Shown: one piece after another, positions 1-43,502 of the stretch
Position numbering within the stretch: the stretch's first letter is position 1
How the letters are laid out: every line of letters starts with the position of its first letter
NCBI GenBank assembly: GCA_947591115.1
Contig: CANQCX010000001.1
Coordinates: forward strand, 1-43,502
DNA from: an uncultured Lachnospiraceae bacterium
GTDB taxonomy: Bacteria; Bacillota; Clostridia; Lachnospirales; Lachnospiraceae
Direction: 5' to 3'
Length of the DNA stretch: 43,502 nt
Notes under the pieces: generated by a model
The model's input: the letters and a program-made list of their open reading frames with translations, nothing else
Database searches by the model: none
What the model was told of the DNA's origin: nothing
Translations under genes and position numbers: made by a program

Positions 1-1
1 G

Positions 2-898
2 ATTTTTCTGACAGTATTCACAGGATATGTATTGCTTGATACATTTGTCATTACCAAGGTTTACCAAACAGTCCCACATGAAACGGGAGGCACAAATGTG
101 GTCGAACAAGACGATAAAGGCACAGGTGCTCATGAATCTGTATCTGAACAGCAGAATTCCAAGTCAAACATCACTGAAGACAGCTATACGGATGACAATA
201 TTTCCATTTCTATCTCCGAATATGTAACAAACCATACGACGGTCTATGTGGCAGATGTCCGGCTTTCCTCCGCAGAATATCTGAAAACCGCCTTTGCCAA
301 TGCTTCTTATGGAAAAAATGTTACAGCAAAGACATCTGAGATTGCCGCAGAAAACCATGCGATCCTCGCCATAAACGGCGATTATTACGGCGCACAGGAA
401 AAAGGATATGTGCTGCGAAATGGTGTTATATATCGGGATTCCGCATTGAAAAATCAGGAGGATCTCGTCATATATAATGACGGATCTTTTGAAATATTTG
501 AGGAACAGAGCGTTTCGGCGGATACGCTTCTGTCAAACGGCGCGGTTCAGATTCTCTCGTTTGGTCCGGCGTTGGTCAATGACGGTCAGATTGCAGTCAC
601 AGAAAATGACGAAGTGGGCAAAGCTAAGGCAAGTAATCCCCGTACAGCTATCGGAATCATTGATGATCTCCATTATGTCTTTGTCGTTTCCGATGGAAGA
701 ACCGAGGAAAGCGAAGGGTTGTCGCTCTATGAACTCGCTGAATTCATGCAAAGTCTCGGTGTTCAAATTGCCTATAATCTTGACGGCGGCGGCTCGTCCA
801 CCATGTATTTTAATGGAGAAATCGTCAACAATCCCACAACGAACGGGAGAAGCATTAAGGAAAGGAGCGTGAGCGATATTGTATATATCGGGTACTGA
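2..898 (+). CDS. Phosphodiester glycosidase (NAGPA/DUF2233-like) family protein, 5'-truncated by the window edge
   Basis: Frame is open from position 2 (IFLTVFTGYVLLD..., hydrophobic). Family motifs AINGDYY, NPRTAIG, DGR and AYNLDGGGS are present. Confidence 0.8.
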   Translation: MFLTVFTGYVLLDTFVITKVYQTVPHETGGTNVVEQDDKGTGAHESVSEQQNSKSNITEDSYTDDNISISISEYVTNHTTVYVADVRLSSAEYLKTAFANASYGKNVTAKTSEIAAENHAILAINGDYYGAQEKGYVLRNGVIYRDSALKNQEDLVIYNDGSFEIFEEQSVSADTLLSNGAVQILSFGPALVNDGQIAVTENDEVGKAKASNPRTAIGIIDDLHYVFVVSDGRTEESEGLSLYELAEFMQSLGVQIAYNLDGGGSSTMYFNGEIVNNPTTNGRSIKERSVSDIVYIGY

Positions 899-1286
899 GG
901 GAAAGGGTTCAGAAGCTGCAAAGACGGCCCTTGTTTATTTGATACTCTCCGTTTTTTGCGCTTTGTTCGGAGCAGTATATGAATTGTTCAGCCACGAGGT
1001 CTATTCCTTTTACATGATCTATGCGTTTGGTTTTCCACTGGTCGGGGGCGCATTGCCCTATGGAATTCTGTCCGCGTTTCATTTAAGAAATTCCTCAGCG
1101 CTTGCAAGGAATTTATATCATTCCGGAATCGCTGCACTTACGGTAGGAAGCATTGTCCGGGGCATTCTTGACATATATGGGACAACAAACAGTCTGTCCA
1201 AATATTATTGGTATGTCGGCGTTTTTGCTGTCGCTGCGGGAGTTGTGATCGGCAGTATCCGTTCGTTTTTCCTGAGAAAAACATAA
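879..1286 (+). CDS. Small integral membrane hypothetical protein (about 4 TM helices)
   Basis: 135-aa ORF with four hydrophobic stretches, overlapping the upstream stop. Start codon uncertain. Confidence 0.65.
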   Translation: MYISGTEGKGSEAAKTALVYLILSVFCALFGAVYELFSHEVYSFYMIYAFGFPLVGGALPYGILSAFHLRNSSALARNLYHSGIAALTVGSIVRGILDIYGTTNSLSKYYWYVGVFAVAAGVVIGSIRSFFLRKT

Positions 1287-1301
1287 GCTTCTGCATCATT
1301 C

Positions 1302-1333
1302 AAAACCCCGAACAAGCTGTTTCGGGGTTTTTT
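1302..1333 (+). terminator. Rho-independent terminator
   Basis: AAAACCCCGAA-caagctgt-TTCGGGGTTTT followed by a T tract. Confidence 0.8.
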
Positions 1334-1437
1334 ATGTGAGTATGGCGGCGCGCGTTTTCAACGGGCAAAAGTCCTGAGTGCTCTTGTTTTTCTGCATATA
1401 AACTGGTATCATAATATGCAGAAACGGAGGACGAAGT

Positions 1438-2484
1438 ATGAGAAAGTTTGATTACTCTTTTTTGAATAATGGAATGCTTCCGGCTGGGTTTGTGAATCTG
1501 ACTGCGAATATTTCGGCGCTCAAAACCATGGCGGGTGTTCGAAAAGAGGAATACGCACAGATTTTTACGGAGCTGGAGGCGGTCGCCAAGGTGCAATCCA
1601 TCAAAAGTTCCAACGCCATTGAGGGAATCGTTACCAGCGACGAGCGTATTGCCGCCATTGTCAATCAGAACAGCGCACCTCTAAACCACAACGAGGCAGA
1701 GATTGCCGGATATAGGGACGCGTTGAATGAGATTCACATGGGTTTTGATCATATCGGCTTTACACAGCGGGATATTCTTCGTCTGCATGAGATGATGATG
1801 TCCGTTGCCGGTTATGAATACGGCGGGCAGTACAAGACGGACGACAACGTGATCTTGGAAGTGGACGCAGACGGCAATCGACGTGTGCGGTTCCGCCCGA
1901 CCTCCGCCGCAGAAACCCCGAAAGCGATGGAACAGTTGGAACTGGCCTATCTTGCAGCGCGGGACGACGCGAATATCAATCAGCTTCTGCTGATCCCCTG
2001 CGTGATTCTGGATTTCCTCTGCATCCATCCGTTTCGGGACGGCAACGGCAGAATGTCTCGGCTGCTCTCGCTGCTGCTTCTTTATAAAAACGGGTATGAC
2101 GCCGGAAAATATGTGTCCTTTGAGGAACAGATCAACAACTATAAAACCTATTACTATGAGGCCCTGCGGCAGTCCTCCGTCGGGTGGGACACGAATGAAA
2201 ACAGCTATTTCCCATTTATAGAAAATTTCCTTTCCATGCTCTATATGTGTTATAAGGAGTTGGATAAACGGTTTGCTGTAGTCAACGGAAAGAAGATCAC
2301 GAAAAAAGCTCGTGTGGAAGCTACAGTACTGAATAGCCTGACGCCTCTTTCCAAAGCGGAGATATGCAGGATTCTTCCGGATGTCAGTCCGACTACGGTG
2401 GAGGCTGTGCTGGGCGCAATGGTCAAAAGCGGTTCTGTTCAGCGCATTGGCAGCGGAAGAGCTACAAAATATATAAAAAAGTAA
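1438..2484 (+). CDS. Fic-domain protein (class II type, N-terminal inhibitory motif) with C-terminal HTH
   Basis: Catalytic motif HPFRDGNGRMSR, N-terminal SSNAIEG inhibitory-helix motif, HTH-like C-terminus, GGAGG RBS. Confidence 0.88.
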   Translation: MRKFDYSFLNNGMLPAGFVNLTANISALKTMAGVRKEEYAQIFTELEAVAKVQSIKSSNAIEGIVTSDERIAAIVNQNSAPLNHNEAEIAGYRDALNEIHMGFDHIGFTQRDILRLHEMMMSVAGYEYGGQYKTDDNVILEVDADGNRRVRFRPTSAAETPKAMEQLELAYLAARDDANINQLLLIPCVILDFLCIHPFRDGNGRMSRLLSLLLLYKNGYDAGKYVSFEEQINNYKTYYYEALRQSSVGWDTNENSYFPFIENFLSMLYMCYKELDKRFAVVNGKKITKKARVEATVLNSLTPLSKAEICRILPDVSPTTVEAVLGAMVKSGSVQRIGSGRATKYIKK

Positions 2485-2511
2485 TGATACAAACAAATGT
2501 TCTAAATATGC

Positions 2512-2540
2512 TTGCAATTATTCAGATAAATGAATATAAT
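2512..2540 (+). promoter_or_regulatory. SigA promoter with an inverted-repeat operator between -35 and -10
   Basis: TTGCAA(2512)-17 bp-TATAAT(2535), with TATTCA-gataaa-TGAATA at 2519-2536. Confidence 0.65.
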
Positions 2541-2566
2541 AGAGAATGAAGATAAGGAGGCGCGGT

Positions 2567-2737
2567 ATGGAGTATTTGACAACATTAGAGATGTCGGAAA
2601 AGTGGGGCATATCAGCAAGAAGAATAGCGTTATTGTGTGAACAGGGACGTATCGCGGGCGTTGTTAAAAAAGGGAAAACATGGTTGATACCGGAACAGGC
2701 AGAGAAACCAGCAGACAAGAGAAAAAATAGTATATAG
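2567..2737 (+). CDS. Small helix-turn-helix DNA-binding protein (excisionase/MerR-like HTH)
   Basis: AGGAGG RBS at 2555 and ATG at 2567. Sequence MEYLTTLEMSEKWGISARRIALLCEQGRIAG..K.GKTWLIP. Confidence 0.8.
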   Translation: MEYLTTLEMSEKWGISARRIALLCEQGRIAGVVKKGKTWLIPEQAEKPADKRKNSI

Positions 2738-2756
2738 CATATTAGGGGGGATTGTT

Positions 2757-3908
2757 TTGAGCAATACCAAGAAAAGACGAGACATAGAAATTTATGAGAA
2801 TTATTGGAAGTTTACGGCAGCCCATCTTGATATTACAGGAACAAAGTTTAATAACTGCTTAAACGTTATTGTTTTGTTTATAGATAAACACAAGAAGTCA
2901 TTAGAAGAGAATGCGAAGAGCGGCAGTGATTTTTCGGATTCAGAATTATATAAAACCCTTCAACAGCAAATTGTGCGCATATCGGGATTTAAAGGCAAGG
3001 ACGCAGCATTATCTGCCAGAAAAGCGATTAATCAATTTGTGAAAATAGGATTTGTGTATCCGTTATTGGTAGGGTATCATCCGTTAGTAAAGTCATTTAT
3101 TCTTGAAACAAATAAAGAAAAGAAAGCGATCATTTTTTCGAAGATTTTTTATGAAAGCTCCTCTTTAGCATCGGATGTTACTTTAGATAATAGAAATTTG
3201 AAGCATGTCAATTTTTTGTTGAAGACGTTGGATAAAAACGGTTCTCTGAACAAAAATGACATCATGGCGCTGATGGTCACAGATATTTCGAATTATAGTG
3301 CAGGATATCTTACAAGAGAGCAGTTGGATATGCAGTATCAATATGCTAAAGTAAGTGAATTTGATGAAAGAAAATATAATCAGATCGCCCATCTGATTGG
3401 ATATTTAAAACGATTTGTAGATCTTAAATATGATAAAAATGAGGAGAGATTTTGGTTTGCAAATGATCCTCAGATAGCGGATAAAGATTTTGATGAATCG
3501 TATGCAAGAGACGGGGTAAAACATAGGATTTATAAGGAGGAATTAAAGGAAGAATCGAAAGCAATTTATGGAGAAGCAGTCTGCTATTTAGATAAAAAGC
3601 CATATAAATCTTTAATCGCATCGCATATAAAACCGTTTGTTGATTGTCTGAAAGAGCATCGGGAAGATGAGGCGTATGATGTAAATAATGGTTTGCTGTT
3701 AAGTCCGACGGTAGATTCATATTTTGATAAAAAAGACATTTCTTTTACGGACGATGGTCATGTTTTAGTTGGAGTTGACGTTGCAGATTCCATCAGGGCG
3801 GATTTTGAAAAATATCAGTTGGACGACAGTGTGCTAAATGAGCGAAGAAAAGGTTATTTAGCGTATCATAGACGCTTATTTGAACAGAAAAATGGAGGTA
3901 AGCAGTAA
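2757..3908 (+). CDS. HNH endonuclease, probable type IIS restriction enzyme (HphI-like)
   Basis: C-terminal HNH_2-type motif LIASHIKPF...YDVNNGLLLSPTVDSYFDK..ISF. Directly upstream of two MTases. TTG start. Confidence 0.8.
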   Translation: MSNTKKRRDIEIYENYWKFTAAHLDITGTKFNNCLNVIVLFIDKHKKSLEENAKSGSDFSDSELYKTLQQQIVRISGFKGKDAALSARKAINQFVKIGFVYPLLVGYHPLVKSFILETNKEKKAIIFSKIFYESSSLASDVTLDNRNLKHVNFLLKTLDKNGSLNKNDIMALMVTDISNYSAGYLTREQLDMQYQYAKVSEFDERKYNQIAHLIGYLKRFVDLKYDKNEERFWFANDPQIADKDFDESYARDGVKHRIYKEELKEESKAIYGEAVCYLDKKPYKSLIASHIKPFVDCLKEHREDEAYDVNNGLLLSPTVDSYFDKKDISFTDDGHVLVGVDVADSIRADFEKYQLDDSVLNERRKGYLAYHRRLFEQKNGGKQ

Positions 3909-4954
3909 TGGCTTTTAAATATATAGATTTATTTTGTGGAGCCGGAGGCCTTTCGTTAGGCTTTGAGCAGGCAGGTTTTAAAAATGTTTTTGCCGTTGAG
4001 TTAAATCCTGAATTTGCAAAAACATATCATAGAAATTTTCCGAAGCATAAATTAATCGTTGACGATATAAGGAATATTGATAACGATAAAATCAAGAAGC
4101 TTATTGGACAGGATGAGGTTGACGTAATTATTGGCGGACCGCCATGTCAGGGATTTTCTATAGCCGGAAATATTGGGAGAACTTTTATTGATGATGAGAG
4201 AAATAGATTATTTAAGGAATTTGTTAGATTTGTAGCTTGTGTGCAGCCAAAAATGTTTATAATGGAAAACGTGGCGGCGATGGCAACGCATTTAAAAGGG
4301 AAAACCATAAAAACAATAGTTGAATCATTTGAAACTGCCGGTTGTGGGTATAAGGTCAAATATGAGGTGCTTAATAGTGTAAATTATGGAGTGGCACAGG
4401 AAAGACGAAGAATCGTTATTGCGGGAATCAGAAGTGATATGGATTCCGATTATTTTTATCCTGAAAAATCAGAAAAAATTTATACAATTAAAGATGCAAT
4501 TGATGACTTGCCAAAGCTAAAGAGCGGAGAAACCAGTGATATACCAAATCATGCGGCAATGAAACACAGCGCGCAGATGCTGGAAAAAATGGGATATGTT
4601 AAAGATGGCGGAGATCGCATGGATATTCCGGAAGAACTGCGTCCAAAATCAGGAGATATAAGAAAATATATTAGATATGATAGTACAAAGCCATCGGTTT
4701 GCGTTACCGGAGATATGAGAAAAATTTTCCATTATGAACAGAATAGGGCGCTTACAGCAAGGGAACTTGCCAGAATACAGTCTTTTCCGGATGATTTTAT
4801 TTTTGAAGGTACATCAATTCAAATTCAGCAACAGATAGGCAATGCGGTACCGCCCAAATTGGCCTATCAGATTGCTTTGCAAGTAGAGGAGGCTCTGGAT
4901 CATGGCAAAGTATCCAAAGGTAAATTACATAGGAAACAAAGAGAAGTTAGTTGA
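3908..4954 (+). CDS. DNA (cytosine-5)-methyltransferase
   Basis: Motif I DLFCGAGG, IV GGPPCQGFS, VI MENV, VIII QERRR, IX ELARIQSFPD, X QIGNAVPP. Confidence 0.96.
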   Translation: MAFKYIDLFCGAGGLSLGFEQAGFKNVFAVELNPEFAKTYHRNFPKHKLIVDDIRNIDNDKIKKLIGQDEVDVIIGGPPCQGFSIAGNIGRTFIDDERNRLFKEFVRFVACVQPKMFIMENVAAMATHLKGKTIKTIVESFETAGCGYKVKYEVLNSVNYGVAQERRRIVIAGIRSDMDSDYFYPEKSEKIYTIKDAIDDLPKLKSGETSDIPNHAAMKHSAQMLEKMGYVKDGGDRMDIPEELRPKSGDIRKYIRYDSTKPSVCVTGDMRKIFHYEQNRALTARELARIQSFPDDFIFEGTSIQIQQQIGNAVPPKLAYQIALQVEEALDHGKVSKGKLHRKQREVS

Positions 4955-5942
4955 TTGGATCATCAATGAGATGCCGGTTAAGGCTGGAACGGTGTTAGAT
5001 ATTTTTGCAGGTGGATGTTCCGTATCATATGCGCTGAAAAATAACGGATATTCCGTTATTGCGAATGACATATTGTATGCTGATTATGTTATAGAGAAAG
5101 CCTTGATAGAGAATTCAGATACAAGGCTTCCGATAAGTGTATTTGATAAGAGGGTAAGTGAAAAAAGAGTAGAAGAGCTGGCGCAGAAGTTTTCGTTTCT
5201 TGCAGGTTGTCTATATTATCCGGAAGAAGTGCAGGAATTAAGTAAATTAGTTGCAATTGCAGAAAAATTAAAGGGTTTCGAGAAGTATATGATGCTTGCG
5301 CTGATTCGCAGGGCAATGATAAGAAAACTTCCGTATTCGAGAATGAATGTACCCTGGAATCAGATTCAGAAATTACGTGATGAAGACTACAGCTATATGA
5401 AGTATAAGCGAAAAAGAGCCTATCATAATCAATCCTTTGAAGAACATATACGAGAAAATATTGATGAATACAATGATGCGATTTTTGCCAAAGAAGAATG
5501 TAAGGCATACAACTGTGACGCCTTTGATATGGTTAAGAAAATAGATTTTGTAGATGTTGTTTACATGGATCCGCCGTATCCGTCAACTATGAACAATTAT
5601 GATATGTTTTATGGTTTGTTTGACGAAATGTTTGACAAGAAAAAGAAGCATATTGATTATACAAAGAAGGCAAGCTTTCTCCATAATATGGACAAGTTGA
5701 TCAAAAAGCTTGTAGGAAAAACACGATACATAGTGCTAAGTCAAAATACACGAGTTCAGCCGGAACCAAGCGCGATTGAAGCAATGCTCAAGAAGTACGG
5801 AAAAGTTACCATTAAGGAGAAGAAGCATAATTATCAAGTAACAGGTAAAGAAAACAAGAATGCAAGCAAGGAGTTATTATTTATCCTTGAGATGGAGACA
5901 GGAGATACGGAGAGCAGAACGGAGGGATATTTTGTCAATTGA
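4902..5942 (+). CDS. DNA adenine-N6 methyltransferase (D12/alpha class)
   Basis: N-terminal NYIGNK, motif I DIFAGGCSVS, catalytic YMDPPY, GAGGAGG RBS. Confidence 0.93.
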   Translation: MAKYPKVNYIGNKEKLVDWIINEMPVKAGTVLDIFAGGCSVSYALKNNGYSVIANDILYADYVIEKALIENSDTRLPISVFDKRVSEKRVEELAQKFSFLAGCLYYPEEVQELSKLVAIAEKLKGFEKYMMLALIRRAMIRKLPYSRMNVPWNQIQKLRDEDYSYMKYKRKRAYHNQSFEEHIRENIDEYNDAIFAKEECKAYNCDAFDMVKKIDFVDVVYMDPPYPSTMNNYDMFYGLFDEMFDKKKKHIDYTKKASFLHNMDKLIKKLVGKTRYIVLSQNTRVQPEPSAIEAMLKKYGKVTIKEKKHNYQVTGKENKNASKELLFILEMETGDTESRTEGYFVN

Positions 5943-7641
5943 AAAAACAAAAAATGAAGACAGGATACTTACCCTTTATGGCTTGATTGAACATTGGGAA
6001 GATGAAGTGATAGAATTTAAAGAAGCCGGAAGGGATTATGACAGGGATAAGATTGGACGATATTTTTCTGCTCTAAGCAATGAGGCTAATTTGCGAGGAT
6101 TACAGCATGGCTGGCTTGTGTTTGGCGTAAGCAATAAAGAAAGAAAAATTGTCGGAACCGAATACAGAAATAGTACAGGCTTGGACACATTAAAACATGA
6201 AATTGGTTCCGGTACAACGGGAGGAATGTCTTTTATTGACATTTATGAGGTGTTTCCAACTGTTGACGGAGAAGAAAAACGAGTGATCATGTTTCAGATA
6301 CCGGCTGCCATTACTGCTGTTCCAACCGGCTGGCATAATCAGGAATATGGACGTGATGGAGAATCCCTTGTCCCATTATCTGAAGAAAAACGGGAGAGAA
6401 TTCGCCGTCAGGTAAAATTGGACTGGTCAAAAAGATTTGTAGAAAATGCAACAATAGAACATTTGGATAAAGAAGCCATATCCATCGCAAAAGCGAAGTA
6501 TAAAGAAAAAATGAATGATATGTATATATCTGGCGAAGTGGATGAAATGTCCGACGAAGAGTTTCTTGAAAGAAGAAAGCTGGTTATAAATGGTAAAGTG
6601 ACAAATGCAGCAATGCTTCTTTTAGGAGATGCGGCATATGATTTTTTGTTTGAAAGCGTACCGGAAGCATCATGGAGAATTTTTGATTCAAAAGAGATGG
6701 TAAAAGATTATGAAATTTATAAAATACCTTTTATTACGCTGAGCGATAGGATTTTGAAAAACATACGTAATCTCACTTATAGGTATATGCCGAATCAATT
6801 GACATTGTTCCCTATGGAAACAAAACAATATGACACATGGGTATTGAGAGAATTACTGAATAACTGTATTGCTCATTCTGATTATAGTCTGGGCGGAAGG
6901 ATTTATATTAATGAATTTGAAGATAAACTGGTTTTGACAAACCCGGGCAGTTTTATTCCGGGTAGTATAGAGCCTATACTGAAACCCGGCTATACTTCGC
7001 CGTTTTATCGTAATCAGTTATTGGCAGAAGCTATGGTTATGTTTAAGATGATAGATACGGAAACGACAGGGATTCGTCGGGTGTTTCATATTCAGTGGGA
7101 GAAATTTTTTCCATTGCCGGATTATAATATTTCTTCAAAAGACAGGGTAGAAGTGTTGGTTTATGGAAAAGAAATTAATGAACAGTTTACCTATTTGCTT
7201 CATGATAATGAAAATCTTGATCTGGCAACGGTTTTTCTGTTGGATCAAGTTCAAAAAGGAAATCCTATTTCTAAAGATGCGGCAGCGCATTTAAGAAAAT
7301 ATAAATTAGTGGAGGGAAGGATAAATAATTTGTATTTGGCATCTCCGCTTGCCAAAACGAAAGAGGATAAAGCACAGTATATTAAGAATAAGGCATTTGA
7401 TGATAAATACTATCAGGATATGATTATAAATTATCTTAGGAAATTTGGTAAGGCAAACAGGGCGGCAATACGTGATCTGTTAATAGATAAGTTCCCAGAT
7501 ACTCTTTCGTCCAGCCAGAAAGAACGGAAAGTGCTAACCTTGCTTACAGCTTTAAAGCGGAAAGGCATGATTACAACCGATTCAGAAAATAGAAAAAGAT
7601 CAAACTGGGTTCTAGTTCAAGACAATGAAAAGTTGGTTTGA
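5932..7641 (+). CDS. Schlafen/AlbA_2 domain protein with HATPase_c_4 (RecG-C-like) domain and C-terminal wHTH
   Basis: GGAGG at 5921 with in-frame TTG at 5932. Schlafen motifs EDEVIEFKEA, FSALSN, GWLVFGV. ATPase-like motifs RELLNNCIAHSDY, NPGSF, RNQLLAE. Confidence 0.85.
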   Translation: MSIEKTKNEDRILTLYGLIEHWEDEVIEFKEAGRDYDRDKIGRYFSALSNEANLRGLQHGWLVFGVSNKERKIVGTEYRNSTGLDTLKHEIGSGTTGGMSFIDIYEVFPTVDGEEKRVIMFQIPAAITAVPTGWHNQEYGRDGESLVPLSEEKRERIRRQVKLDWSKRFVENATIEHLDKEAISIAKAKYKEKMNDMYISGEVDEMSDEEFLERRKLVINGKVTNAAMLLLGDAAYDFLFESVPEASWRIFDSKEMVKDYEIYKIPFITLSDRILKNIRNLTYRYMPNQLTLFPMETKQYDTWVLRELLNNCIAHSDYSLGGRIYINEFEDKLVLTNPGSFIPGSIEPILKPGYTSPFYRNQLLAEAMVMFKMIDTETTGIRRVFHIQWEKFFPLPDYNISSKDRVEVLVYGKEINEQFTYLLHDNENLDLATVFLLDQVQKGNPISKDAAAHLRKYKLVEGRINNLYLASPLAKTKEDKAQYIKNKAFDDKYYQDMIINYLRKFGKANRAAIRDLLIDKFPDTLSSSQKERKVLTLLTALKRKGMITTDSENRKRSNWVLVQDNEKLV

Positions 7642-7736
7642 AGTTGGTTTGAAATTGGTTTGATGATTGGTTTGATAATGACAAAGTAAATGGCGAAGAA
7701 ACGCTTTATTTAAGCCGTTTTCTGAAATCAAACCAA
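7633..7736. repeat. Four tandem TTGGTTTGA copies plus one inverted copy
   Basis: TTGGTTTGA at 7633, 7644, 7655 and 7667 (periods 11, 11, 12). TCAAACCAA at 7728-7736. Confidence 0.9.
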
Positions 7737-7877
7737 TTTATAAAATAAAATTTGTTTGAAATGGCCAAACCGTTTTTAACATGTGAAAGCATAAATAATA
7801 TCAATAAAATTGATTAAATATAATCATTGCAAAAACCGCATGATTAGTTAAAATAATATCAATGTTTTTGATGAAAA

Positions 7878-7906
7878 TTGTCATGTCCCTTGCGGGCGTG
7901 TACAAT
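7878..7906 (+). promoter_or_regulatory. SigA promoter of leuA
   Basis: TTGTCA(7878)-17 bp-TACAAT(7901), with extended TG. Confidence 0.6.
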
Positions 7907-7929
7907 CGAAAAAGGAAAGAAGGACAAAA

Positions 7930-9921
7930 ATGAAGAATGTAGAAAAGTATAAAAGACAGTACTTCCTGCCGCCGGTTTATGGCTTGGAATGGGCGAAAAA
8001 GGATCATATTGAAAAAGCGCCGATCTGGTGCTCCGTAGATCTGAGGGACGGAAATCAGGCGCTGATCGAGCCGATGGGACTGGAAGAAAAAATCGAATTT
8101 TTCCAGATGCTGGTAGACATCGGGTTTAAGGAAATTGAAGTCGGGTTTCCGGCGGCGTCCGAAACGGAATTTGATTTTCTGCGCGCGCTGATCGAGCGGG
8201 GAATGATACCGGAGGACGTTACGATTCAGGTATTGACGCAGGCAAGGGAGCATATTATCAAAAAGACGTTTGAAGCGCTGAAGGGCGCGCCGCGCGCCAT
8301 TGTGCATCTGTACAATTCGACCTCGGTAGCGCAGCGCGAGCAGGTGTTCCGGAAGGATAAGGAGCAGATCAAAGCGCTTGCCGTAGACGGCGCCAAATTG
8401 CTGAAGCGTCTGGCGGATGAAACGGAAGGAAATTTCTCCTTTGAATACAGTCCGGAAAGCTTTCATGGAACCGAGGTGGAGTATGCACTGGATGTCTGCA
8501 ATGCCGTACTGGACGTCTGGCAGCCGACTGCGGACAGGAAGGCGGTTATCAACATTCCGGCAACGGTGGAAACCGCCATGCCGCATGTATTTGCTTCCCA
8601 GATTGAATACATGAGCAAAAATTTAAAATATCGGGAAAATGTAGTGCTGAGCCTGCATCCTCATAATGACAGGGGCTGCGGAGTCAGCGATACGGAGCTT
8701 GGCATACTGGCGGGGGCGGATCGCGTGGAAGGGACGCTGTTCGGAAACGGAGAGCGTACCGGAAATGTTGATATTATCACAGTTGCCATGAACCTGTTTT
8801 CTTACGGCATCGATCCGGAGCTGGATTTTTCCAATATGCCGGAGATTTCCGAGCGTTATGAACGCTTGACGAAAATGAGCGTGTCAAACCGCCAGCCGTA
8901 TGCGGGAAGTCTGGTATTTACCGCATTTTCCGGCTCGCATCAGGATGCGATCGCAAAAGGCATGAACTGGCGGGAGACGAAGAAACAGACGATATGGGAT
9001 GTTCCGTATCTGCCGATCGATCCGGTCGATGTTGGAAGAACCTATGATGCGGATGTAATCCGGATCAACAGCCAGTCCGGAAAAGGCGGGATCGCCTATA
9101 TCCTGAAACAGAATTATTCGATCTCCATACCGGAGAGAATGCGGGAAGAGGTCGGCTACGCCGTAAAGCAGGTCAGCGACGAGGAGCACAAAGAGCTTTC
9201 GCCTCAGTGGGTTTACGAAATTTTTGAGGAGAACTACATTGATTATTCTCCGAACTTTAAAATTTTAGAGTGCCATTTCAAACAAAACGACGGAATCATG
9301 GCGGAAGTAACCATTGCGGCAGGAGAAAAGAAAACCATCGTAGATGCGAACGGAAACGGACGGCTGGACGCGGTCAGCAACACGATCAAGCAATTTTTCG
9401 GGATCAGCTACGAACTGTCCGTTTACGAGGAGCACGCATTGTCCAAAGGCTCCTCCTCCAAAGCGATGGCGTATGTCGGAATTGTCTGCGACCAGAAAGC
9501 GTACTGGGGAGCAGGGATCGACGAGGACATTATCAAGGCCTCGGTCAATGCGCTTGTAGTAGCGGTCAACAAGCTTCCGCAGGTGCAGAACGACAAAAAT
9601 ATGAAAGACGACCGCCTGATGACGATGTTAAACTTTATGCAGGCAAATTACCAGACGGTTACGCTGGAGGATATGGCAAAGGAATTTCATTTTTCCACGC
9701 CGTATATTTCCAAGTACATTAAAGACAAATCCGGAAAAACATTTGGGGAACATCTGACGCAGATGCGGTTAAAAAGGGCGAAAAGCCTTTTGAAGAACGG
9801 AAATATGACCGTAGAAAATATTGCGAACGTGGTGGGTTATCCGAATGCCGAGCATTTTATCCGTCTGTTTAAAAAGACATTTGACATGACTCCGGTGCAG
9901 TATCGGAACTTAAACCGATAA
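7930..9921 (+). CDS. leuA: 2-isopropylmalate synthase (yeast/actinobacterial type) fused to a C-terminal AraC HTH domain
   Basis: [40 protein letters not shown] and the regulatory domain. The last ~105 aa form an AraC double HTH ([21 protein letters not shown]...[29 protein letters not shown]). Confidence 0.93.
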
Positions 9922-19425: not shown

Positions 19426-19430
19426 CGGAC

Positions 19431-28822: not shown

Positions 28823-28893
28823 AATAAGAGCCTGTGGGAATCAGGTGCATATCCGTATCTCGATATGACCAAATCACCACAGACTCTCTTATT
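28823..28893. terminator. Long imperfect hairpin between convergent genes (probable bidirectional terminator)
   Basis: AATAAGAG.CCTGTGG...CATATC-loop-GATATG...CCACAG..CTCTTATT. Confidence 0.55.
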
Positions 28894-28927
28894 TTACATT
28901 TCTGTCCTCTGCATTCATTGGGCCAGG

Positions 28928-30883
28928 TTAAATTTCTTCCAAAACCTTCAGCTTTTCTTTTACCTGATTTGCCGCTTCCAGTATAACGGCTGCAGATGCC
29001 GCTATCTCTTCAGTTGAAGCCGCCAGATTCTGTGTTCTTCCGTTCACTTTCTCTATAATCTGGCTGAGACTGTGCGTATCATCAAGGATCTGCTTAACAG
29101 AGCTCATGATCTTCGTCTGGCTTTCATTGCTGCGGGTGGCAGTCTCGCTGGAATTGCTTGCCAGATGATTAATCTCCCCGGCCACCACCGCAAAACCGCG
29201 TCCGGCCTCTCCCGCTCTGGCTGCTTCAATAGACGCATTAAGTGCCAGCAGGTTGGTCTGAGACGCAATTTCCAGCACCTCATCATTATTTTTCTCCAAT
29301 TCACCCAGAATCATGCTGATCTCATCCATGGAGTCTGATAACTTTTCAAAGAAGGTAGCCAGGTTTGCCATTTCACCGGAAATTTCCGTACTCTCCTCAG
29401 CGTTGTTTTCATTTCCCGCTACCATGTCATCCACCGAACTGTACAGCCCCGCAAATTCCCTGTTTACTTCGTTTATAGTAGCTATAATCAGATCCTTCTG
29501 TTCCTCAATGGTAGCCTTATCCTTCTCCAGCATTTCTGCAAGCTCCATGGAACGTTGATTCTGAACTTCTACCTGTTTCTTGGTATAGTAAATACAATTT
29601 TCCTTTCTGCTGAACCCATTATAGATGGCATCCGCCATCTGACGGCAGGAATCATAACCACAGCAGGAACAGTTAATCATTCTTTCCTCCCTGGTTTTCT
29701 TGCACATTTCTTCAAAAATAGCATTCCGTTCAGCTTCTGTAGGTACTTTCACCACGCACTCTGCGGAACGATCCGTATATCCTCTCAGATAATCCTCCAG
29801 CTTCAGATTCCGGAACTGATAATTCAACCGTTTTAACCGCTGCTCCGGCGTAAGGCGTTTGGCCCATGCGCTTTTCCTTCCATCCTTCTTTGACTCTTCC
29901 CGTATTTTGAGCAGAGAACACAGTACGGAATCGTCATCAGCCTTTTCCTGATCGCAGCCTGTTCCATAAATACAGCCGCTGGAACAATTCAGCGCATCAA
30001 TAAAAAGGTACGGTGTCTGGCTTTTCGCTATTTTGTCCTTATTGTGTTCCAGATAATGATACATATGCTTTTCGCCTTCTATCTGCCGGATGAACACACT
30101 CTCGCCTAAAAACCAGTATACATTTTCCTTCAAACCGCCGGGCATGGGATAAATGGAACCAAGCCCGTACTCAATCTCATCCGAAGCAAGAGCCCCTCTG
30201 ATATTATTTTCCCTGACATATTTCATAAGATGATCAAAAGTCACATTATAGGAAACATATCCCTTATTATTGGGATCCTCGATCTCCAGCTTCTTTGCAA
30301 TGCAGGGACTGATAAAAGCCAGTTTATCCTGTATTTTCATTTCCTTTTTCGCATAAATAGCCGCACACATCATAGGACTCTGCACAGGAAAAAGCCGGGG
30401 AATAAGCTCAGGCGTATAATGCTCTATGTAACGAACCACAGCGGGACAGGGCTGTGAAATTCCTCCCAGGAAATTATTTTTCTTTACATAATTCAAATAC
30501 CCCCAGGTTGTAATATCCGCTCCGAAAGAAACGCTGATAAGATGATTTACGCCAAGCTGCTTTAAGCCTCCCAAAACGGATTCATAATCATCGGGATAAT
30601 TAGCCTTAAACGCCGGCGCAATTAAAAGCGAAATCCGTTCTCCGTTCTTCAGATCATGGAAAAACCGTTCCGTATCATCCTGAAATTCCCTGGCTTTATG
30701 TTCACACACATCCAGGCAGGCACCACATGCCACACAGCGGTTCCCATCCACCTCAATCCTGTTTTTCCCATCAATTTCCTTGGAAATACAGGCCCCTGCA
30801 GCGCTACATACACTGGTACACTTATTGCAGCCGATACAATTCTCGTTCGTAAAAACCAGTGATTTTTTTTCGTTTGTTGCCAT
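28928..30883 (-). CDS. Sensory [FeFe]-hydrogenase-like protein fused to a methyl-accepting chemotaxis signalling domain
   Basis: Two ferredoxin motifs (CIGCNKC..C, CVACGAC..C). H-cluster-like [25 protein letters not shown]. FeS motif NCSCCGY..C..C. MCP signature [30 protein letters not shown]. Confidence 0.9.
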
Positions 30884-31162
30884 AGAATTCCCTTACCTTT
30901 CCTCGCATTTTTCTAATAAAGCCACACCGATGCATCGTATTGGCTTTTTCCAACAAATCTGCCAAAACCGACTGCAGCTTATACAAAAATATTATACAAT
31001 TTATTTCAATCTTTTTCAACAAAATATGTGCATTTTGTAAAATTTAAATGATGCATTCACAGAAAACTTATGCTATAATAATGTTAAATCCACAACCGGA
31101 TGAAATTTCAATACATTTTTTATTCATTTGGATGCATTTTGGCTGTTTTTTTCAGTGAAAAG

Positions 31163-31190
31163 CTAATTTTTCTTTCTGATCAGCCGATAT
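31163..31190 (+). promoter_or_regulatory. Sigma28 (FliA/SigD) promoter
   Basis: CTAAT-15 bp-GCCGATAT. The -10 box is a perfect SigD consensus. Confidence 0.7.
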
Positions 31191-31224
31191 CTTTTATACT
31201 AAAACAACCAAGGAGGGTAAAAGT

Positions 31225-31845
31225 ATGAGTGTAAATGGAGTTACTGGTGCTTCTGATGTGTACAATGCATATTCCACAGTACAGACCAAAAGTGCGGATA
31301 CCGAAACCACAAACGAGGCCGTAAGCAGTTCCCAGTCAACCGCTGAATCTGCCGGTGCCGTATATGAGCCTTCAGAAGAAGCAAAAGCTGCTTCTGTCAA
31401 GAAATATACGCCTGACCGCAATCTGATCGCAAAGCTGAAAGCTGATGCTGATGCAAGAACCGCACAGCTTCAGAGCCTTGTTGAAAAGATGCTTACCAAA
31501 CAGGGACAGACCTACAATAAAGCCAATGATATCTGGAGCGTCTTATCCAGCGGCAACTTTACCGTTGATCCGGCCACGAAAGCGCAGGCCCAGGCGGATA
31601 TCGCCGAGGATGGTTACTGGGGCGTTAAACAGACTTCACAGCGTATTCTGGATTTTGCTACCGCTTTGACGGGAGGCGATCCGGATCAGATCGAAAAAAT
31701 GCGGTCCGCATTTGAAAAAGGCTACAAACAGGCGGAAAGAATCTGGGGCGGACATCTCCCTGACATTTCCCGACAGACCTATGATGCGGTTTTGTCCGGC
31801 TTTGATAAGCTGGCGGAAGAAGCAGGTCTTGCCAAAGAAGAATAA
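31225..31845 (+). CDS. Conserved hypothetical protein, likely in the flagellar (sigma28) regulon
   Basis: AGGAGG RBS. Low-complexity N-terminus and conserved-looking C-terminus (EDGYWGVKQTSQRILDFA..WGG.LP). Confidence 0.75.
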   Translation: MSVNGVTGASDVYNAYSTVQTKSADTETTNEAVSSSQSTAESAGAVYEPSEEAKAASVKKYTPDRNLIAKLKADADARTAQLQSLVEKMLTKQGQTYNKANDIWSVLSSGNFTVDPATKAQAQADIAEDGYWGVKQTSQRILDFATALTGGDPDQIEKMRSAFEKGYKQAERIWGGHLPDISRQTYDAVLSGFDKLAEEAGLAKEE

Positions 31846-31866
31846 AATTCTCTTATCCATAAAAAA

Positions 31867-33726
31867 GGGAGTGTTGCAAAATAACTAATTTATAGTTATG
31901 GAGCGATGCTCCCTCTCTTTTGTGAACAGCGACAGGGACAAAATCTCTTTTTGTGGATTTTGTCCCTGTTTTTGGCGTACTTTAATAAACTCTGCACTTT
32001 TTTCTATTTTACCTATGCGGTTTTTATGGTAAACAGATGGCTTCCCAGCCTGTCATTCTGTATCTTCGCGTGCAGCTTGTTGAGATTGTAGCCCATACAC
32101 AGCAGAAGTATCTCCAGTTTTACTTTTGTTTTCCCTCGCAGCAAAAATCTCTGGAACTCATAATCATTTTTCAGTACACCAAAGGCTCCCTCCACCTGGA
32201 TCGAGCGGTTCATACGGTATTGGATCCCCTTTTCGCTCAAGATGTTCTCATAGGACTCCTGACGTTTTTCTATAAAGCTTTTAGAAACATACAGCCGTTT
32301 GTTTCCTTTCGCCTTTGTACAGGCTTCTTTATAGGAGCAGCCGCTGCAATCCTCACATTCATACACCGTTACTTCTGACTCATAGCCGCTTTTGCTTCTC
32401 TGTTTCTTTTTGCCCACTGCCATAAGCCGCTTCCCGGCATGGCAGGTATAACAGTCGCTGCTTTCATCATATCCCATGTTCTCCCGTTTGCTGATGTCCT
32501 TCTTAAAACTCCGTTTCTTCCATGTCTCATAGGTCTGAGGCTTGATATAGGGTGTCTGTTCCTTTTCCCGCAGATAGCTGTAACCTTCTTCGCTTTCATA
32601 CCCGGAATCCGCAGTTACGCTGGGATAGCGGAATCTAAGTTTTTCTTCCATATGCTTCAAGAACGGCACCAGAGTCCATACATCATTCCTGTCCTGGAAG
32701 ATGTCAGCCGCAACGATATATTCACTGTCCACACCGATCTGCACATTGTACCCGGGCTTTAGCTGAGCATTCCTCATGTGGTCATCCTTCATGTGCATAA
32801 AGGTGGCATCCACATCCGTTTTGGAATAATTGTTCCGGTCCCCGAAACGGCAATGGTGCAGGTCGTATAGAAGCTGGCGGTCCAGAAACCTACGGAATAG
32901 TTCCCGGTATTTCTGGTGGATGCTCTTCCTTTTCCCCCTGCCGTATACAGATGCGACGGCATGCTGTTCACAGTATCCTTCCAGGAAATCCAGTATCCTT
33001 TGCAGATCTTGTGAGCATGTTTCTTTTGCCACCACAAATGCCTGCATGTATTCCTGATTCACCAGCTGCACCGCCTCCTGTATCTTCTGGAACATTTTTT
33101 CTTCCCATTTGCTGATGGATTTCTTCCAGACGAATGTGTATTTATTGGCACATGCCTCCAGTTTTGTTCCATCAATAAAAACAGTTTCTTGAGCCAGTTC
33201 ACCCATGTCTGCAAGATGGCGCACCAACTGGTAGAACAGGTCTTCACATGCCTCCGCTAAAAAGCCGGTCCGGAATCTGGCAATGGTGCTGTGGTCCGGC
33301 GCTTTCTGTCCTGCCAGGAGCCATAGGAAGTTGATATCCCTCCTGCATGCACTCTCGATCTTTCTGGAAGAGTAGATGTTTTGTGAGTAGGCGTAGGTCA
33401 GTATCTTGAACATGGTCTTAGGATCCACTGCGGGATTTCTGCCTTTGGCAGAGTAAGCCTGGTACAGCAAAGTGTAATCCAATTCCTCCAATTCGTGGCT
33501 CAGCAGTCGGACAGCATCATCTTCAGGAACCAGCCCTTCCAAACTTAACGGTAAAACCAGTTGATAAGTTTGCCCAAGTTCGGTATAATTTTTGTTGTAT
33601 TTTAAGTTACTCGTCATAACTTATTATACCATGAATGGCAGGTTCTTCGGAACCTGCTTTTCTGTTTTCCAACATAAAAAGGGAGCTGCTGCTCCATAGA
33701 TTACTCATCTATTTTGCAACAGCCCC
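31867..33726 (-). mobile_element. IS1182-family insertion sequence
   Basis: Terminal IRs GGGAGTGTTGCAAAATA (31867) and reverse complement GGGGCTGTTGCAAAATA (33710-33726) match at 15/17. They enclose one transposase. Confidence 0.9.
32013..33617 (-). CDS. IS1182-family DDE transposase
   Basis: YSSRKIE, PDHSTIARFR, FIDGTK, KTDVDATFM, ADSGYES, Cys-rich insertion, RSIQVEGAFG. Confidence 0.95.
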   Translation of the reverse strand: MTSNLKYNKNYTELGQTYQLVLPLSLEGLVPEDDAVRLLSHELEELDYTLLYQAYSAKGRNPAVDPKTMFKILTYAYSQNIYSSRKIESACRRDINFLWLLAGQKAPDHSTIARFRTGFLAEACEDLFYQLVRHLADMGELAQETVFIDGTKLEACANKYTFVWKKSISKWEEKMFQKIQEAVQLVNQEYMQAFVVAKETCSQDLQRILDFLEGYCEQHAVASVYGRGKRKSIHQKYRELFRRFLDRQLLYDLHHCRFGDRNNYSKTDVDATFMHMKDDHMRNAQLKPGYNVQIGVDSEYIVAADIFQDRNDVWTLVPFLKHMEEKLRFRYPSVTADSGYESEEGYSYLREKEQTPYIKPQTYETWKKRSFKKDISKRENMGYDESSDCYTCHAGKRLMAVGKKKQRSKSGYESEVTVYECEDCSGCSYKEACTKAKGNKRLYVSKSFIEKRQESYENILSEKGIQYRMNRSIQVEGAFGVLKNDYEFQRFLLRGKTKVKLEILLLCMGYNLNKLHAKIQNDRLGSHLFTIKTA

Positions 33727-33746
33727 TTTATTTATGCACTTTGCGG

Positions 33747-35157: not shown

Positions 35158-35177
35158 GATTTGGCGTTACGTGCAGA

Positions 35178-35207
35178 ATCCGCTTATTTTAATAAGCGGT
35201 TTTTTTG
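35178..35207 (+). terminator. Riboswitch expression-platform terminator
   Basis: CCGCTTATT-tt-AATAAGCGG followed by a T tract. Confidence 0.85.
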
Positions 35208-35226
35208 TTTGAAAGGAGCAAAAGAA

Positions 35227-36408: not shown

Positions 36409-36421
36409 AAGAGTAAAAAAT

Positions 36422-38593: not shown

Positions 38594-38655
38594 AATTTTC
38601 AATATGGTAAGGAGTTCCTATTGTTTTTTTCTAAAAGATAGGATATGATAAGCAT

Positions 38656-38757
38656 GTTATATGACTGACGGAACTGTGGAGTATACCACGTGGAGTATAA
38701 CTGCGAAAGATAGCCGACCGTCTGGGCTGAACGAAGTCCGGCGGTATGGCTTTTTTT
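38656..38757 (+). ncRNA. ZMP/ZTP (pfl) riboswitch with terminator
   Basis: P1 GTTATAT/GTATAAC, GACTGACGG, P2 GTGG..CCAC, 3' GCCGACCGTCTGGGC with pseudoknot GACGG/CCGTC. Followed by a hairpin and T7. Upstream of pflB. Confidence 0.88.
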
Positions 38758-38825
38758 ATACCATAGGATGCAGAAAGTCTCCGGCGGATGCGTTAAGGTT
38801 AAGCATATTTCATCAGGAGGGAAAG

Positions 38826-41054: not shown

Positions 41055-41126
41055 CGAAACAGTTTTTCTGGAATAGGTTGAATTTCTCCTATTTATCGCA
41101 TATAATAAGTACGGAGGTGTACGCCA

Positions 41127-41369
41127 ATGACAATTAACACGAACACACTGGTTTCCATTACAGAAGCCAATCAAAACTTTTCCAGAGTTGCCCGACTTGT
41201 GGACGAGAACGGCGCCGCCGTTATTCTGAAAAACAATGTGCCGCGCTATCTTGTCATAGAATTTGGTCAGGCAGAATCCGAGCAGCTTGCTGCTGACGAG
41301 GATGTCATGATAATTTCCAAGCGTCTGATCGAAAAAAACAGAGAAGCTTATGAGGTACTTGCTAAATGA
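41127..41369 (+). CDS. phd: Phd/YefM antitoxin
   Basis: VSITEANQNFSRVARLV..G..VILKNN.P motif. Overlaps the doc start (ATGA). Own promoter TTGAAT(41078)-17 bp-TATAAT. Confidence 0.88.
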   Translation: MTINTNTLVSITEANQNFSRVARLVDENGAAVILKNNVPRYLVIEFGQAESEQLAADEDVMIISKRLIEKNREAYEVLAK

Positions 41370-41743
41370 AGCGGCTGACGAAAGCGCAGATTCTTTTTCT
41401 CCATAGCGCTTTGAGACGGGAAACGGGCGGAGCCGATGGACTGCGTGATGAAGGCCTTTTGGAATCTGCCTTAGAAGCACCGTTTCAAAGTTTCGGAGAG
41501 ATAGACGCCTATCCTTCCATTCAGCAAAAAGCTGCGCGGTTGGGGTTCGGCTTAATTCGCAATCACGCATTTGTTGACGGCAATAAACGAATCGGTGCGC
41601 ACGCGATGCTTGTGTTTCTGTCACTCAACGGGATCGAGCTGACCTATACGCAGTCAGAACTTTCCGATCTGATTCTCGCTGTTGCCGCCGGAACAAGATC
41701 CTTTGACGATATGGTAAAATGGATCATTGAACATCAAAAATGA
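41366..41743 (+). CDS. doc: Death-on-curing (Doc) toxin
   Basis: GLRDEGLLESAL and Doc motif NHAFVDGNKR. Confidence 0.92.
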   Translation: MKRLTKAQILFLHSALRRETGGADGLRDEGLLESALEAPFQSFGEIDAYPSIQQKAARLGFGLIRNHAFVDGNKRIGAHAMLVFLSLNGIELTYTQSELSDLILAVAAGTRSFDDMVKWIIEHQK

Positions 41744-41781
41744 AAAATAGCACAGTCTAAGCAAGGGACTGTGCTGTTTTC
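41743..41781. terminator. Terminator after doc
   Basis: AAAATAGCACAGTC-loop-GACTGTGCTGTTTT. Confidence 0.7.
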
Positions 41782-41850
41782 ATATTGTCTGCTGGGATGC
41801 GGCAAGACAAATAAAACAGAGGGTAAATAATAAAAAGGTTTAGTAAAAAA

Positions 41851-42582
41851 ATGGGAAAAATTCACTCTATTGAAACATTTGGAACAGTGGACGGACCGGG
41901 CGTCCGTTTTGTCGTTTTCTTTCAGGGATGCCCGATGCGCTGCCAGTATTGCCATAATCCCGATACATGGGATTTGGCGGACGGACAGGATATGACGGCG
42001 GATGAAATTCTGGATAAAATGGAACGCAATCTGGTATTTTACGAAAGCGGAGGCATTACGGCGACCGGAGGGGAACCGATGCTGCAGCTTGATTTTTTAA
42101 CGGAGCTTTTTTCAAAAGCGAAGGCGAAAGGAATCCACACCTGCCTCGATACATCCGGCATCCTGTTTCCGGACGAACAAAATAAGGACGCGCTTGCCAA
42201 AATCGAGCGGCTGCTTTGGCAGACGGATCTGGTGCTGCTGGACATCAAGCACATTGATGAGGAAGAATGCAAAAAACTGACCGGTCATTCCAACCGGCCG
42301 GCGCTTCAATTTGCGCGTTATCTGGAACGGATGCACAAGCCGGTCTGGATTCGTCATGTAGTTGTTCCGGGGATTACCCTGAAGGAAAAACCGCTGACGG
42401 AGCTTGGGCGTTTTCTGCGCACGCTCTCCAATATGGAAAAGCTGGAAGTGCTGCCGTATCATTCGCTCGGAAAAGTCAAATATGAGAATCTGGGAATGGA
42501 GTATGCGCTAAAAGACACGCCGCAGGCGACAAAAGAAGAAGCGGCTCAGGCGGAGCGCATGATTCGGGCGGCAATGGAGTGA
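41851..42582 (+). CDS. pflA: Pyruvate formate-lyase activating enzyme (radical SAM)
   Basis: FGTVDGPG, GCPMRCQYCHNPD, GGEP, LPYH. Confidence 0.96.
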   Translation: MGKIHSIETFGTVDGPGVRFVVFFQGCPMRCQYCHNPDTWDLADGQDMTADEILDKMERNLVFYESGGITATGGEPMLQLDFLTELFSKAKAKGIHTCLDTSGILFPDEQNKDALAKIERLLWQTDLVLLDIKHIDEEECKKLTGHSNRPALQFARYLERMHKPVWIRHVVVPGITLKEKPLTELGRFLRTLSNMEKLEVLPYHSLGKVKYENLGMEYALKDTPQATKEEAAQAERMIRAAME

Positions 42583-42594
42583 GGAGAAAGCGAA

Positions 42595-43287
42595 ATGAAG
42601 GATGAAACGATCGAGATCATATACGAAGACGAAGCGGTCATTGTCTGCCGGAAACCGGCGGGACGGGCGACGCAGACGGCAAAGCTGGGACAGCAGGATA
42701 TGGTAACGCTTCTGAAAAATTACCGCGCAGGGAAAAAAGAAACGCCTTATATCGGCGTCGTACACAGACTTGACCAGCCGGTGGAGGGACTTATGGTATT
42801 TGCCAAAACGAAGGAAGCCGCCGCAAAGCTTTGCGCGCAGATGGCAAAGCACCGCATAGGAAAACATTATTATGCCGCTGCGTATGCGCCGGAGGGGAAA
42901 AATATACGCCTCCGGCAGCAGGGGACGCTTACGGATTATCTTTCTTTTGACGCCCAAAAGAACCGGACAAAGATTCTGCCGTTGGAGGAACGCCAAAAAG
43001 GGAAAAAAGCGGTTCTGGATTATCGAGTGCTCGAATTCCGAGAAAACCTCCTCTTTTTGGATATTACTCTCCGTACGGGCAGACATCATCAGATACGCGC
43101 CCAGCTTGCCAATCAGGGGTGCCCGATCGTCGGCGATAAAAAATACGGCTTTGGAGGAAACGGGGAGGAGACGCCCCGCCCGCTGGCGCTGTGCGCCTAC
43201 CGGCTGGAATTTGCGCATCCTGCCGACGGACGCATGATGGAGTTTTCCATTGAGCCGACGTGGAGGAAGGATTATCGTTTTTTATAA
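42595..43287 (+). CDS. RluA-family pseudouridine synthase
   Basis: KPAG, VHRLD, TGRHHQIR, PIVGD.KY. Confidence 0.93.
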   Translation: MKDETIEIIYEDEAVIVCRKPAGRATQTAKLGQQDMVTLLKNYRAGKKETPYIGVVHRLDQPVEGLMVFAKTKEAAAKLCAQMAKHRIGKHYYAAAYAPEGKNIRLRQQGTLTDYLSFDAQKNRTKILPLEERQKGKKAVLDYRVLEFRENLLFLDITLRTGRHHQIRAQLANQGCPIVGDKKYGFGGNGEETPRPLALCAYRLEFAHPADGRMMEFSIEPTWRKDYRFL

Positions 43288-43352
43288 CAGTTCAGTCACG
43301 CCTGTTGCTACTTGTCAAGGACGTATTCATTTTGACCTGTTATAATTTTTTG

Positions 43353-43490
43353 TTGAATGTATGTGGAAAGTGTGGTATTCTGTTATCAGAAAAGGAAAGC
43401 ACCCACTCCAAAGTGGATGCTCCCGGTTAAGTTAATGTCCTTACGGACACCGCCTATCCTGTGTAGCAGACAGGATAGGCATTTTTATTT
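43353..43490 (+). ncRNA. Putative small RNA (promoter to terminator, no ORF), candidate type I antitoxin
   Basis: TTGAAT(43353)-17 bp-TATTCT with extended TG. Hairpins AGCACCCAC..GTGGATGCT, TGTCC.ttac.GGACA and GCCTATCCTGT..ACAGGATAGGC, then a T tract. Confidence 0.45.
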
Positions 43491-43502
43491 TCGCTTTTTC
43501 TT

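Follow-up and report, generated by a model that had tools for sequence, protein, structure and literature searches.

The 43,502-nt stretch of DNA analyzed here (positions 1 to 43,502 of contig CANQCX010000001.1; hereafter, the window) comes from an uncultured Lachnospiraceae bacterium, labeled G000, and carries at 2757-5942 an intact three-gene restriction-modification cassette resembling HphI. Throughout the window (1..43502), and genome-wide, the pentamer GGTGA and its complement TCACC are depleted, together with other restriction-site-like words. We consider it probable that the cassette is an HphI-like Type IIS system whose residence purged most GGTGA/TCACC sites, through deamination of the methylated first cytosine of TCACC combined with selection against new sites. 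In what follows, G, L and C numbers denote genomes, loci and G000 contigs, respectively.

Counted on the + strand, the window contains no GGTGA and six TCACC (28874, 29301, 29373, 29749, 33059 and 33199), exactly as a first-pass annotation of this DNA had reported. Its expectation of about 85 sites, which assumed uniform composition, was too high; with that null dropped for Markov nulls, the maximal-order model predicts 27 sites (ratio 0.22, Poisson P 1.3e-6). GGTAA and TTACC, which it had described as common, are indeed plentiful (50+57), and the split of 0 versus 6 between strands is marginal (P 0.03). Five of the six survivors, which together span 28874..33203 (+ strand), fall within two minus-strand genes: an IS1182 transposase (32013-33617) and a gene at 28928-30883, which contains three of the six and whose protein combines two regions, one like an [FeFe]-hydrogenase and the other like a methyl-accepting chemotaxis protein. 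The genome-wide rate predicts 5.2 sites for the window, and its site density is typical of the whole genome.

The G000 assembly (1.84 Mb, 79% complete) holds 221 GGTGA/TCACC sites versus 1144 expected from the maximal-order Markov model (ratio 0.19) or 1467 from a second-order model, and the word is under-represented by both Markov and codon-aware, in-frame nulls. This genome-wide count bears out the depletion proposed in the first-pass annotation, though not its focus on a single word: GGTGA belongs to a set of about a dozen words that are depleted in this genome, and it is not the top outlier. CCGTG/CACGG is rarer (70 versus 1862 expected, ratio 0.04; 0.01-0.03 in all six frames), and CCWGG (0.07), GGGCT (0.20), GGGTC (0.23), GGWCC (0.30), GGCC (0.35) and CCSGG (0.41) are scarce as well, as are GTCGAC, GTTAAC, GTGCAC, CCAAGG, CCATGG, GAGCTC, CAGCTG and GCATGC. 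Within the window, CCWGG (15 versus 71 expected), CCGTG (1 versus 40), GGWCC and CCSGG yield a larger z than GGTGA, and the ratio of GGGTC is below that of GGTGA. The companion words show frame-dependent patterns in G000, and GGGTC depletion is found in the nearest sampled congener, G155, as well. No methyltransferase matching CCGTG, CCWGG or the other companion words was found in the 79%-complete assembly. Among 157 congeners, G000 (16 per Mb) and G179 (25) are the two lowest for CACGGA, followed by G008, G101, G021 and G061; no N6/N4, D12 or C5 methyltransferase found was common to the CACGGA-poor genomes examined, and a G101 candidate for CCGTG was rejected, with matches in just two of the 157 genomes, one of them at only 49%. 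In sampled regions of G280 and G197 (L163-L169, L177-L182), the most depleted pentamer is GTCTC/GAGAC (0.17, 0.31), which is likely the imprint of another Type IIS system.

Gene calls follow a simple open reading frame rule, which leaves a few frames wrong. The gene set that the first-pass annotation had assigned to an HphI-like system is supported by profile matches and by full-length gonococcal homology. It comprises, on the + strand, an intact 383-aa HNH restriction endonuclease (2757..3908; Pfam HNH_2, PADLOC REase_II E 1.5e-86), with C276, H290, N311 and D320 invariant in all seven aligned sequences; a 348-aa C5-cytosine methyltransferase (3908..4954; PF00145 E 7e-82, with PCQ and ENV motifs); and a 346-aa N6-adenine methyltransferase of the D12 class (4902..5942; PF02086 E 1e-30, with a DPPY motif). 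All three genes are open and their motifs intact. The cytosine methyltransferase is the sole PF00145 match in the assembly, the cassette is the sole C5 and sole D12 methyltransferase locus found, and no N6/N4 methyltransferase was found in the 79%-complete assembly. No Vsr was found in any of the five genomes searched, G000 included, which extends the earlier observation that no vsr gene is adjacent.

The nuclease aligns over its full length with the gonococcal protein P0124, named HphI (40% identity, 388 columns, E 2e-81), and a gonococcal locus (L025) matches all three proteins (C5 methyltransferase 56%, adenine methyltransferase, DamH, 42%, nuclease 40%); the closest relatives of the cassette (85-90%) lie in Lachnospiraceae assemblies. 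The gonococcal system is described as two methyltransferases and a nuclease acting at GGTGA, with N6-methyladenine (m6A) on the forward strand and 5-methylcytosine (m5C) on the reverse (PMC6789123). Because of this homology, and because depletion is associated with carriage across genomes, the window cassette is likely an HphI-like Type IIS system recognizing GGTGA/TCACC, as the first-pass annotation had suggested. The 3908..4954 enzyme likely methylates the first C of TCACC and the 4902..5942 enzyme likely methylates the A of GGTGA.

To relate depletion to carriage, site density was approximated by GGTGAA per Mb, and carriage among congeners was defined by a close match to the cassette adenine methyltransferase. 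G000, at 47 per Mb, is the lowest of the 157 congeners, most of which lie at 300-650. Four of them carry a match: G000, G179 (78 per Mb, the second lowest), G166 (492) and G072 (438). An unselected family draw of 401 genomes yielded four carriers, of which the three other than G000 rank 1, 2 and 5 of 400 (ranks made by hand from rounded sizes; P about 1e-6, which ignores kinship). A protein search returned 22 handles, three of them left uncounted (a 31-residue fragment and two distant named records); of the resulting 19 carriers, 11 lie at <=128 per Mb, two at 171 and six at 274-522. Overall, 12 of 21 carriers lie at <=128 per Mb and 14 at <=171, a density reached by 2 of the 397 non-carriers in the family draw, so that the correlation with cassette presence proposed in the first-pass annotation is observed.

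When ~510 pentamer pairs are ranked by depletion in sampled DNA, GGTGA comes first in G186, G187, G198 and G199; it takes second place in G179, G373 and G197 and eighth in G280, and its level is normal in G155, G105, G094 and G166. GGTAA stands at 1.37-1.93 in G186, G187, G198, G199 and G179. Carrier hosts belong to several genera, with GC contents from 40 to 56%, and the cassette tree interleaves low and normal carriers, with some low carriers being kin. Depletion tracks carriage and residence time rather than kinship alone, in statistics that carry no kin correction, and the cross-genome association provides independent support for GGTGA as the cassette target. A sister relationship between G179 and G000 is not supported: its median identity is 77% versus 85% for G155 (small samples), its MetK is 85% identical, like that of other congeners, and the flanks differ.

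Residence time was approximated by the GC content at third codon positions (GC3) of the cassette, which ranges from 0.23 to 0.75 among the 21 carriers and correlates negatively with site density (Spearman -0.82, P 6e-6). In eight carriers, the cassette is level with its flanks or lies above a short flank; their densities are 36-171 per Mb, with seven at <=111. In four genomes, G000 included (cassette GC3 0.33, genome median 0.58), the sites have already been purged although the cassette remains AT-rich. The GC3 trend and these purged genomes with AT-rich cassettes indicate that site loss precedes amelioration, which removes the conflict that the first-pass annotation had perceived between a long-term imprint and a foreign-looking cassette. 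In a valine-codon model, a 30-fold raised rate clears three quarters of the silent sites in a tenth of the G155 distance. G155 (87% complete) shows neither the depletion nor a match to the gene that defines carriage, and the imprint postdates the split from this congener. A second strain (~99% identity, run X1) holds the cassette genes and differs upstream of 2743, and none of the 15 of 32 joints listed in a read/contig comparison skips the cassette. Low coverage in runs X4 and X6 carries no weight on this point, and the small-share runs X5 and X7-X9 lie outside the comparison. No close donor was found in the 22 loci compared, where identity at four-fold sites is <=0.50, versus 0.52 for G000 and its nearest congener.

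The reading-frame pattern of the loss was analyzed with in-frame Markov expectations on native contigs, superseding a synonymous shuffle that was distorted by codon-junction bias. In G000, the frames in which C-to-T at the first C of TCACC is silent contain 27 sites versus 1066 expected (0.025, about 40-fold depletion), whereas the non-silent frames contain 78 versus 352 (0.22, about 5-fold; P 3e-26 versus silent frames). Individually, the silent frames nTC-ACC and nnG-GTG-A stand at 0.03 and 0.02, and the three non-silent frames at 0.21, 0.27 and 0.13; in four cleaner carriers, the silent and non-silent values are 0.034 and 0.12 (P 3e-5). Deamination of T(m5C)ACC would be expected to leave such a pattern. 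Across 349 orthologues common to G000 and G155, the G155 sites kept in G000 amount to 0/148 and 3/265 in the silent frames and 11/44 for GGT-GA, with controls at 15-31%. The share of ACC after Ile/Phe is at baseline overall (0.64) and higher after T-ending codons (0.74), and the G share before Val is unchanged overall; the change is therefore at the C2:G4 pair and not at the outer pair (C5/G1).

Further traces concern the products of the loss. In G179, the G share lost before Val reappears as A (0.41 to 0.66, n=137), and in G186 it is mostly A. An excess of the product word TTACC/GGTAA that balances the loss is seen in G179 and in part in G186 and in non-coding DNA, but not before Val in G000 and G199 or in the matched orthologue table described below. 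In non-coding DNA, five carriers taken together show GGTGA at 4 versus 54 expected and GGTAA at 157 versus 111 expected. Selection has left traces as well: histidine is retained while CAC:CAT drops to 28:438, where a ratio of about 0.4 is expected, and orthologues seldom gain a GGT-GA site (3/701 positions versus 13/743 for GGT-AA), with more gained in other contexts. Three analyses were set aside: a chi-square for exit at C2 (P 9e-13) was withdrawn because its control was unsuited, a quasi-independence test of product excess was uninformative, with controls at 1.5-4.5 in G000, and an apparent TC-ACG halo reflected the overlapping depletion of CACGG.

Under the explanation that we favor, the cassette would have been acquired horizontally once this lineage had separated from the nearest sampled congener, and m5C at T(C)ACC would deaminate to TTACC, with no Vsr found for its repair, such that silent positions would be lost first and furthest. 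Where C-to-T alters the protein, the ~5-fold loss would have proceeded through silent changes elsewhere in the word, a route that needs selection, against self-cutting or against mutational load, which are indistinguishable in these data. Site loss would outpace amelioration of the cassette codons, allowing a purged genome and an AT-rich cassette to coexist, and part of the loss may stem from an earlier system that shared this specificity. It is likely that deamination and selection against sites are both at work; in our reading, deamination removed sites early on, selection then kept them from re-entering, and relaxation to host codon preference came later. The purge that the first-pass annotation attributed to self-cutting and/or deamination is thus upheld as a loss since the G155 split in which both forces leave traces, with mixed results from the product-base tests.

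Several observations weigh against this explanation. Seven of the 21 carriers are undepleted (274-522 per Mb), all with a cassette GC3 <=0.30; we read these as recent arrivals, which is shown only for G072, whose cassette has a relaxase and integrases alongside, and suggested for G188, which has RepA. Conversely, three non-carriers are low (G003 at 151, G243 at 133 and G319 at 142 per Mb). Single-molecule real-time (SMRT) kinetics in gonococcus point to the middle cytosine, and not the first, as the most plausible m5C (PMC6789123), and the GGTGA ratio in that species is only 0.60 (100 kb), versus 0.15 in G000. Undepleted genomes, too, have GGTAA at 1.05-1.29 overall and at 1.20 outside coding DNA, and even in them the histidine frame stands at about 0.5. 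The A share before Val is 0.40 in G000, where a pure G-to-A drain predicts near 0.5, and the lost G share is spread evenly in G000 and becomes C in the GC-rich G199; G179 alone, with G186 in part, fits the drain. Finally, the excess of TTACC/GGTAA that the first-pass annotation proposed to seek at sites of relatives was addressed with a matched-control orthologue table, which fits neither pure model (selection-only P 0.007, drain P 5e-6).

That table is nearer to selection alone, in which occasional nuclease cuts at unmethylated host sites would favor any site-destroying change and deamination would play no real part. Such a scenario is also in line with the non-silent frames, depleted 4-8 times with the amino acid retained, with G000 and G199, which lack an A excess before Val, and with the preference expressed in PMC4687349 and PMC10333322. 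We nonetheless deem it unlikely, as it does not predict the 9-fold (G000) or 3.6-fold (four carriers) frame gap following the C2:G4 pair, the unchanged margins at C5 and G1, or the lost G share reappearing as A in G179. Deamination alone would involve no cost of self-cutting; the residual non-silent loss would arise from amino-acid changes that are tolerated and from the load that recurrent harmful mutations impose. The reading-frame pattern, the conserved GGT-GA sites kept at control rates (11/44) and the absence of Vsr from the five genomes searched speak for it. It appears less plausible still, given that product shares mismatch a continuing drain, that G000 shows no loss of His to Tyr and that new GGT-GA sites are rare.

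The imprint could also have been left by an earlier, lost GGTGA system, with the present cassette a recent re-arrival into a purged genome. The dozen or so other depleted words with no matching methyltransferase in the assembly, the low GC3 of the cassette relative to the genome, and a product pattern that looks more relaxed in G000 than in G179 at similar cassette GC3 would suit this history, which leaves the assignment of GGTGA as target as it is. It is very unlikely in view of the lack of a close donor among the compared loci, the silent frames still at 0.02-0.03, with no refilling seen, and the presence of the cassette genes in the second strain. Least credible of all, to the point of being highly improbable, is that the depletion is unrelated to the cassette and reflects codon-pair or compositional bias, or that some other word, for instance CCGTG, is the cassette target. 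CCGTG is rarer than GGTGA and would fit an m5C and m6A pair too, and the two lowest congeners for CACGGA are G000 and G179; yet GGTGA is normal in G155, G105 and G094, CCGTG stands at 0.83-1.13 in seven other sampled carriers that are fully or partly depleted, and homology indicates GGTGA. The combination of deamination and selection following arrival of an HphI-like cassette thus remains our preferred explanation.

Surviving GGTGA sites in G000 are clustered (dispersion chi-square 890, 231 degrees of freedom). Three contigs hold 56 of the 221, one of them phage-like, and other rare words are also kept there. Contig C9 (19 kb, 33 sites, normal density) looks like a small phi29-type phage, with putative DNA polymerase, packaging, capsid and lysis genes judged by eye from translations, and represents a recent infection or a binning error. 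Contigs C86 and C100, which carry an ABC transporter/aminotransferase cluster and a glycosylation-like cluster at normal density, mark recent acquisition or mis-binning. Site density could serve to date such islands.

Around the cassette, DNA similarity to cassettes of relatives begins near window position 2490 in several loci. A 56-aa helix-turn-helix gene (2567..2737, + strand; Pfam HTH_17 E 2e-5, under cut-off) lies ahead of the nuclease and is a possible regulator of the cassette. Downstream, an AT-rich AlbA_2/ATPase-like gene (5860..7641, + strand), on which the explanation does not depend, occupies the position that a second HNH gene holds in five related loci. In that four-gene version, an HNH paralogue (40-49% identical) follows the adenine methyltransferase, at L005:5008-6099, L006:4748-5839, L008:13160-14248, L011:4261-4887 and L016:2766-3862 by locus comparison, and the window adenine methyltransferase is ~13 residues longer than in loci with the second HNH. 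A SoFic-like Fic gene (1438-2484) directly precedes the cassette, and a short Doc-like gene lies at 41366-41743, near pflB. At 7930-9921, LeuA (2-isopropylmalate synthase) is fused to a C-terminal AraC-type helix-turn-helix domain.

These results provide a new example of known restriction-site avoidance, made valuable by how strong the loss is, by the graded hosts and by the companion words, chiefly CCGTG. Whether mutation or selection against self-cutting causes site loss is still argued (PMC4687349, PMC10333322, PMC10423294), and an asymmetric site with one mutagenic m5C strand and one m6A strand, in carriers of graded age, renders the two forces separable by reading frame. A likely target is assignable from sequence alone, which is useful for genetic work on uncultured gut Firmicutes. 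We advance a broader proposal more tentatively, as possible though somewhat doubtful: that one mobile cassette at different ages in 21 hosts constitutes a natural time series in which sites vanish at the start, through deamination at one base, are afterwards kept low by selection, and cassette codon usage converges last, and that G000 records a dozen past systems, including one of CCGTG/CACGG specificity that purged its word in all six frames. If true, word statistics would provide the target, modified base and arrival order of restriction systems in uncultured bacteria. No report of this cassette, of GGTGA depletion in Lachnospiraceae or of a CCGTG system was found in the open-access literature, REBASE and most subscription papers lying outside the scope of that search.

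Among known systems, the closest is NgoAXVI of Neisseria gonorrhoeae, with which L025 was equated from source names and gene set. Like the window cassette, it combines an m5C methyltransferase, a D12-class m6A methyltransferase and an HNH nuclease; its site is GGTGA, which is also the likely site of the window cassette. The nuclease gene comes first in the window cassette and last in NgoAXVI, and gonococcus has Vsr enzymes (PMC6789123), in contrast with the lack of any found in G000. The record holding L025 (NZ_CP119142.1, 2.17 Mb, gonococcal) is filed as a plasmid and is likely a chromosome. HphI of Haemophilus parahaemolyticus recognizes GGTGA and is paired with m5C and m6A methyltransferases. 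It is an HNH Type IIS enzyme (PMC2816704), likened to the window nuclease by description only. HpyAV/Hin4II, which recognize CCTTC, have the same gene set as the window cassette, with HNH, m5C and m6A components (PMC2816704). A CCTTC target was rejected for the cassette, since this word is not depleted in G000 and is near 1 in most sampled carriers, and, in a comparison by gene set and site words, the window nuclease differs from HpyAV/Hin4II in matching an HphI-named protein over its full length.

With regard to avoidance itself, orthodox Type II sites, asymmetric ones included, are reported to be avoided in about half of cases, with avoidance increasing with residence time and lost systems leaving traces (Rusinov et al. 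2015, PMC4687349). The avoidance threshold given there is 0.78 (0.926 for asymmetric sites), versus 0.06-0.19 here, and its main text contains neither "deamination" nor "GGTGA". In Bacteroides, methylated motifs, a IIS motif among them, have been described as lost in particular lineages, with hypermutation judged insufficient alone (PMC10333322), and in Helicobacter pylori a frame-resolved deamination analysis has been applied to the m5C motif ACGT (PMC10423294). Those studies rest on methylomes measured within species, whereas the present analysis follows one cassette through 21 hosts, drawn from several genera, and takes its GC3 as a clock of residence.

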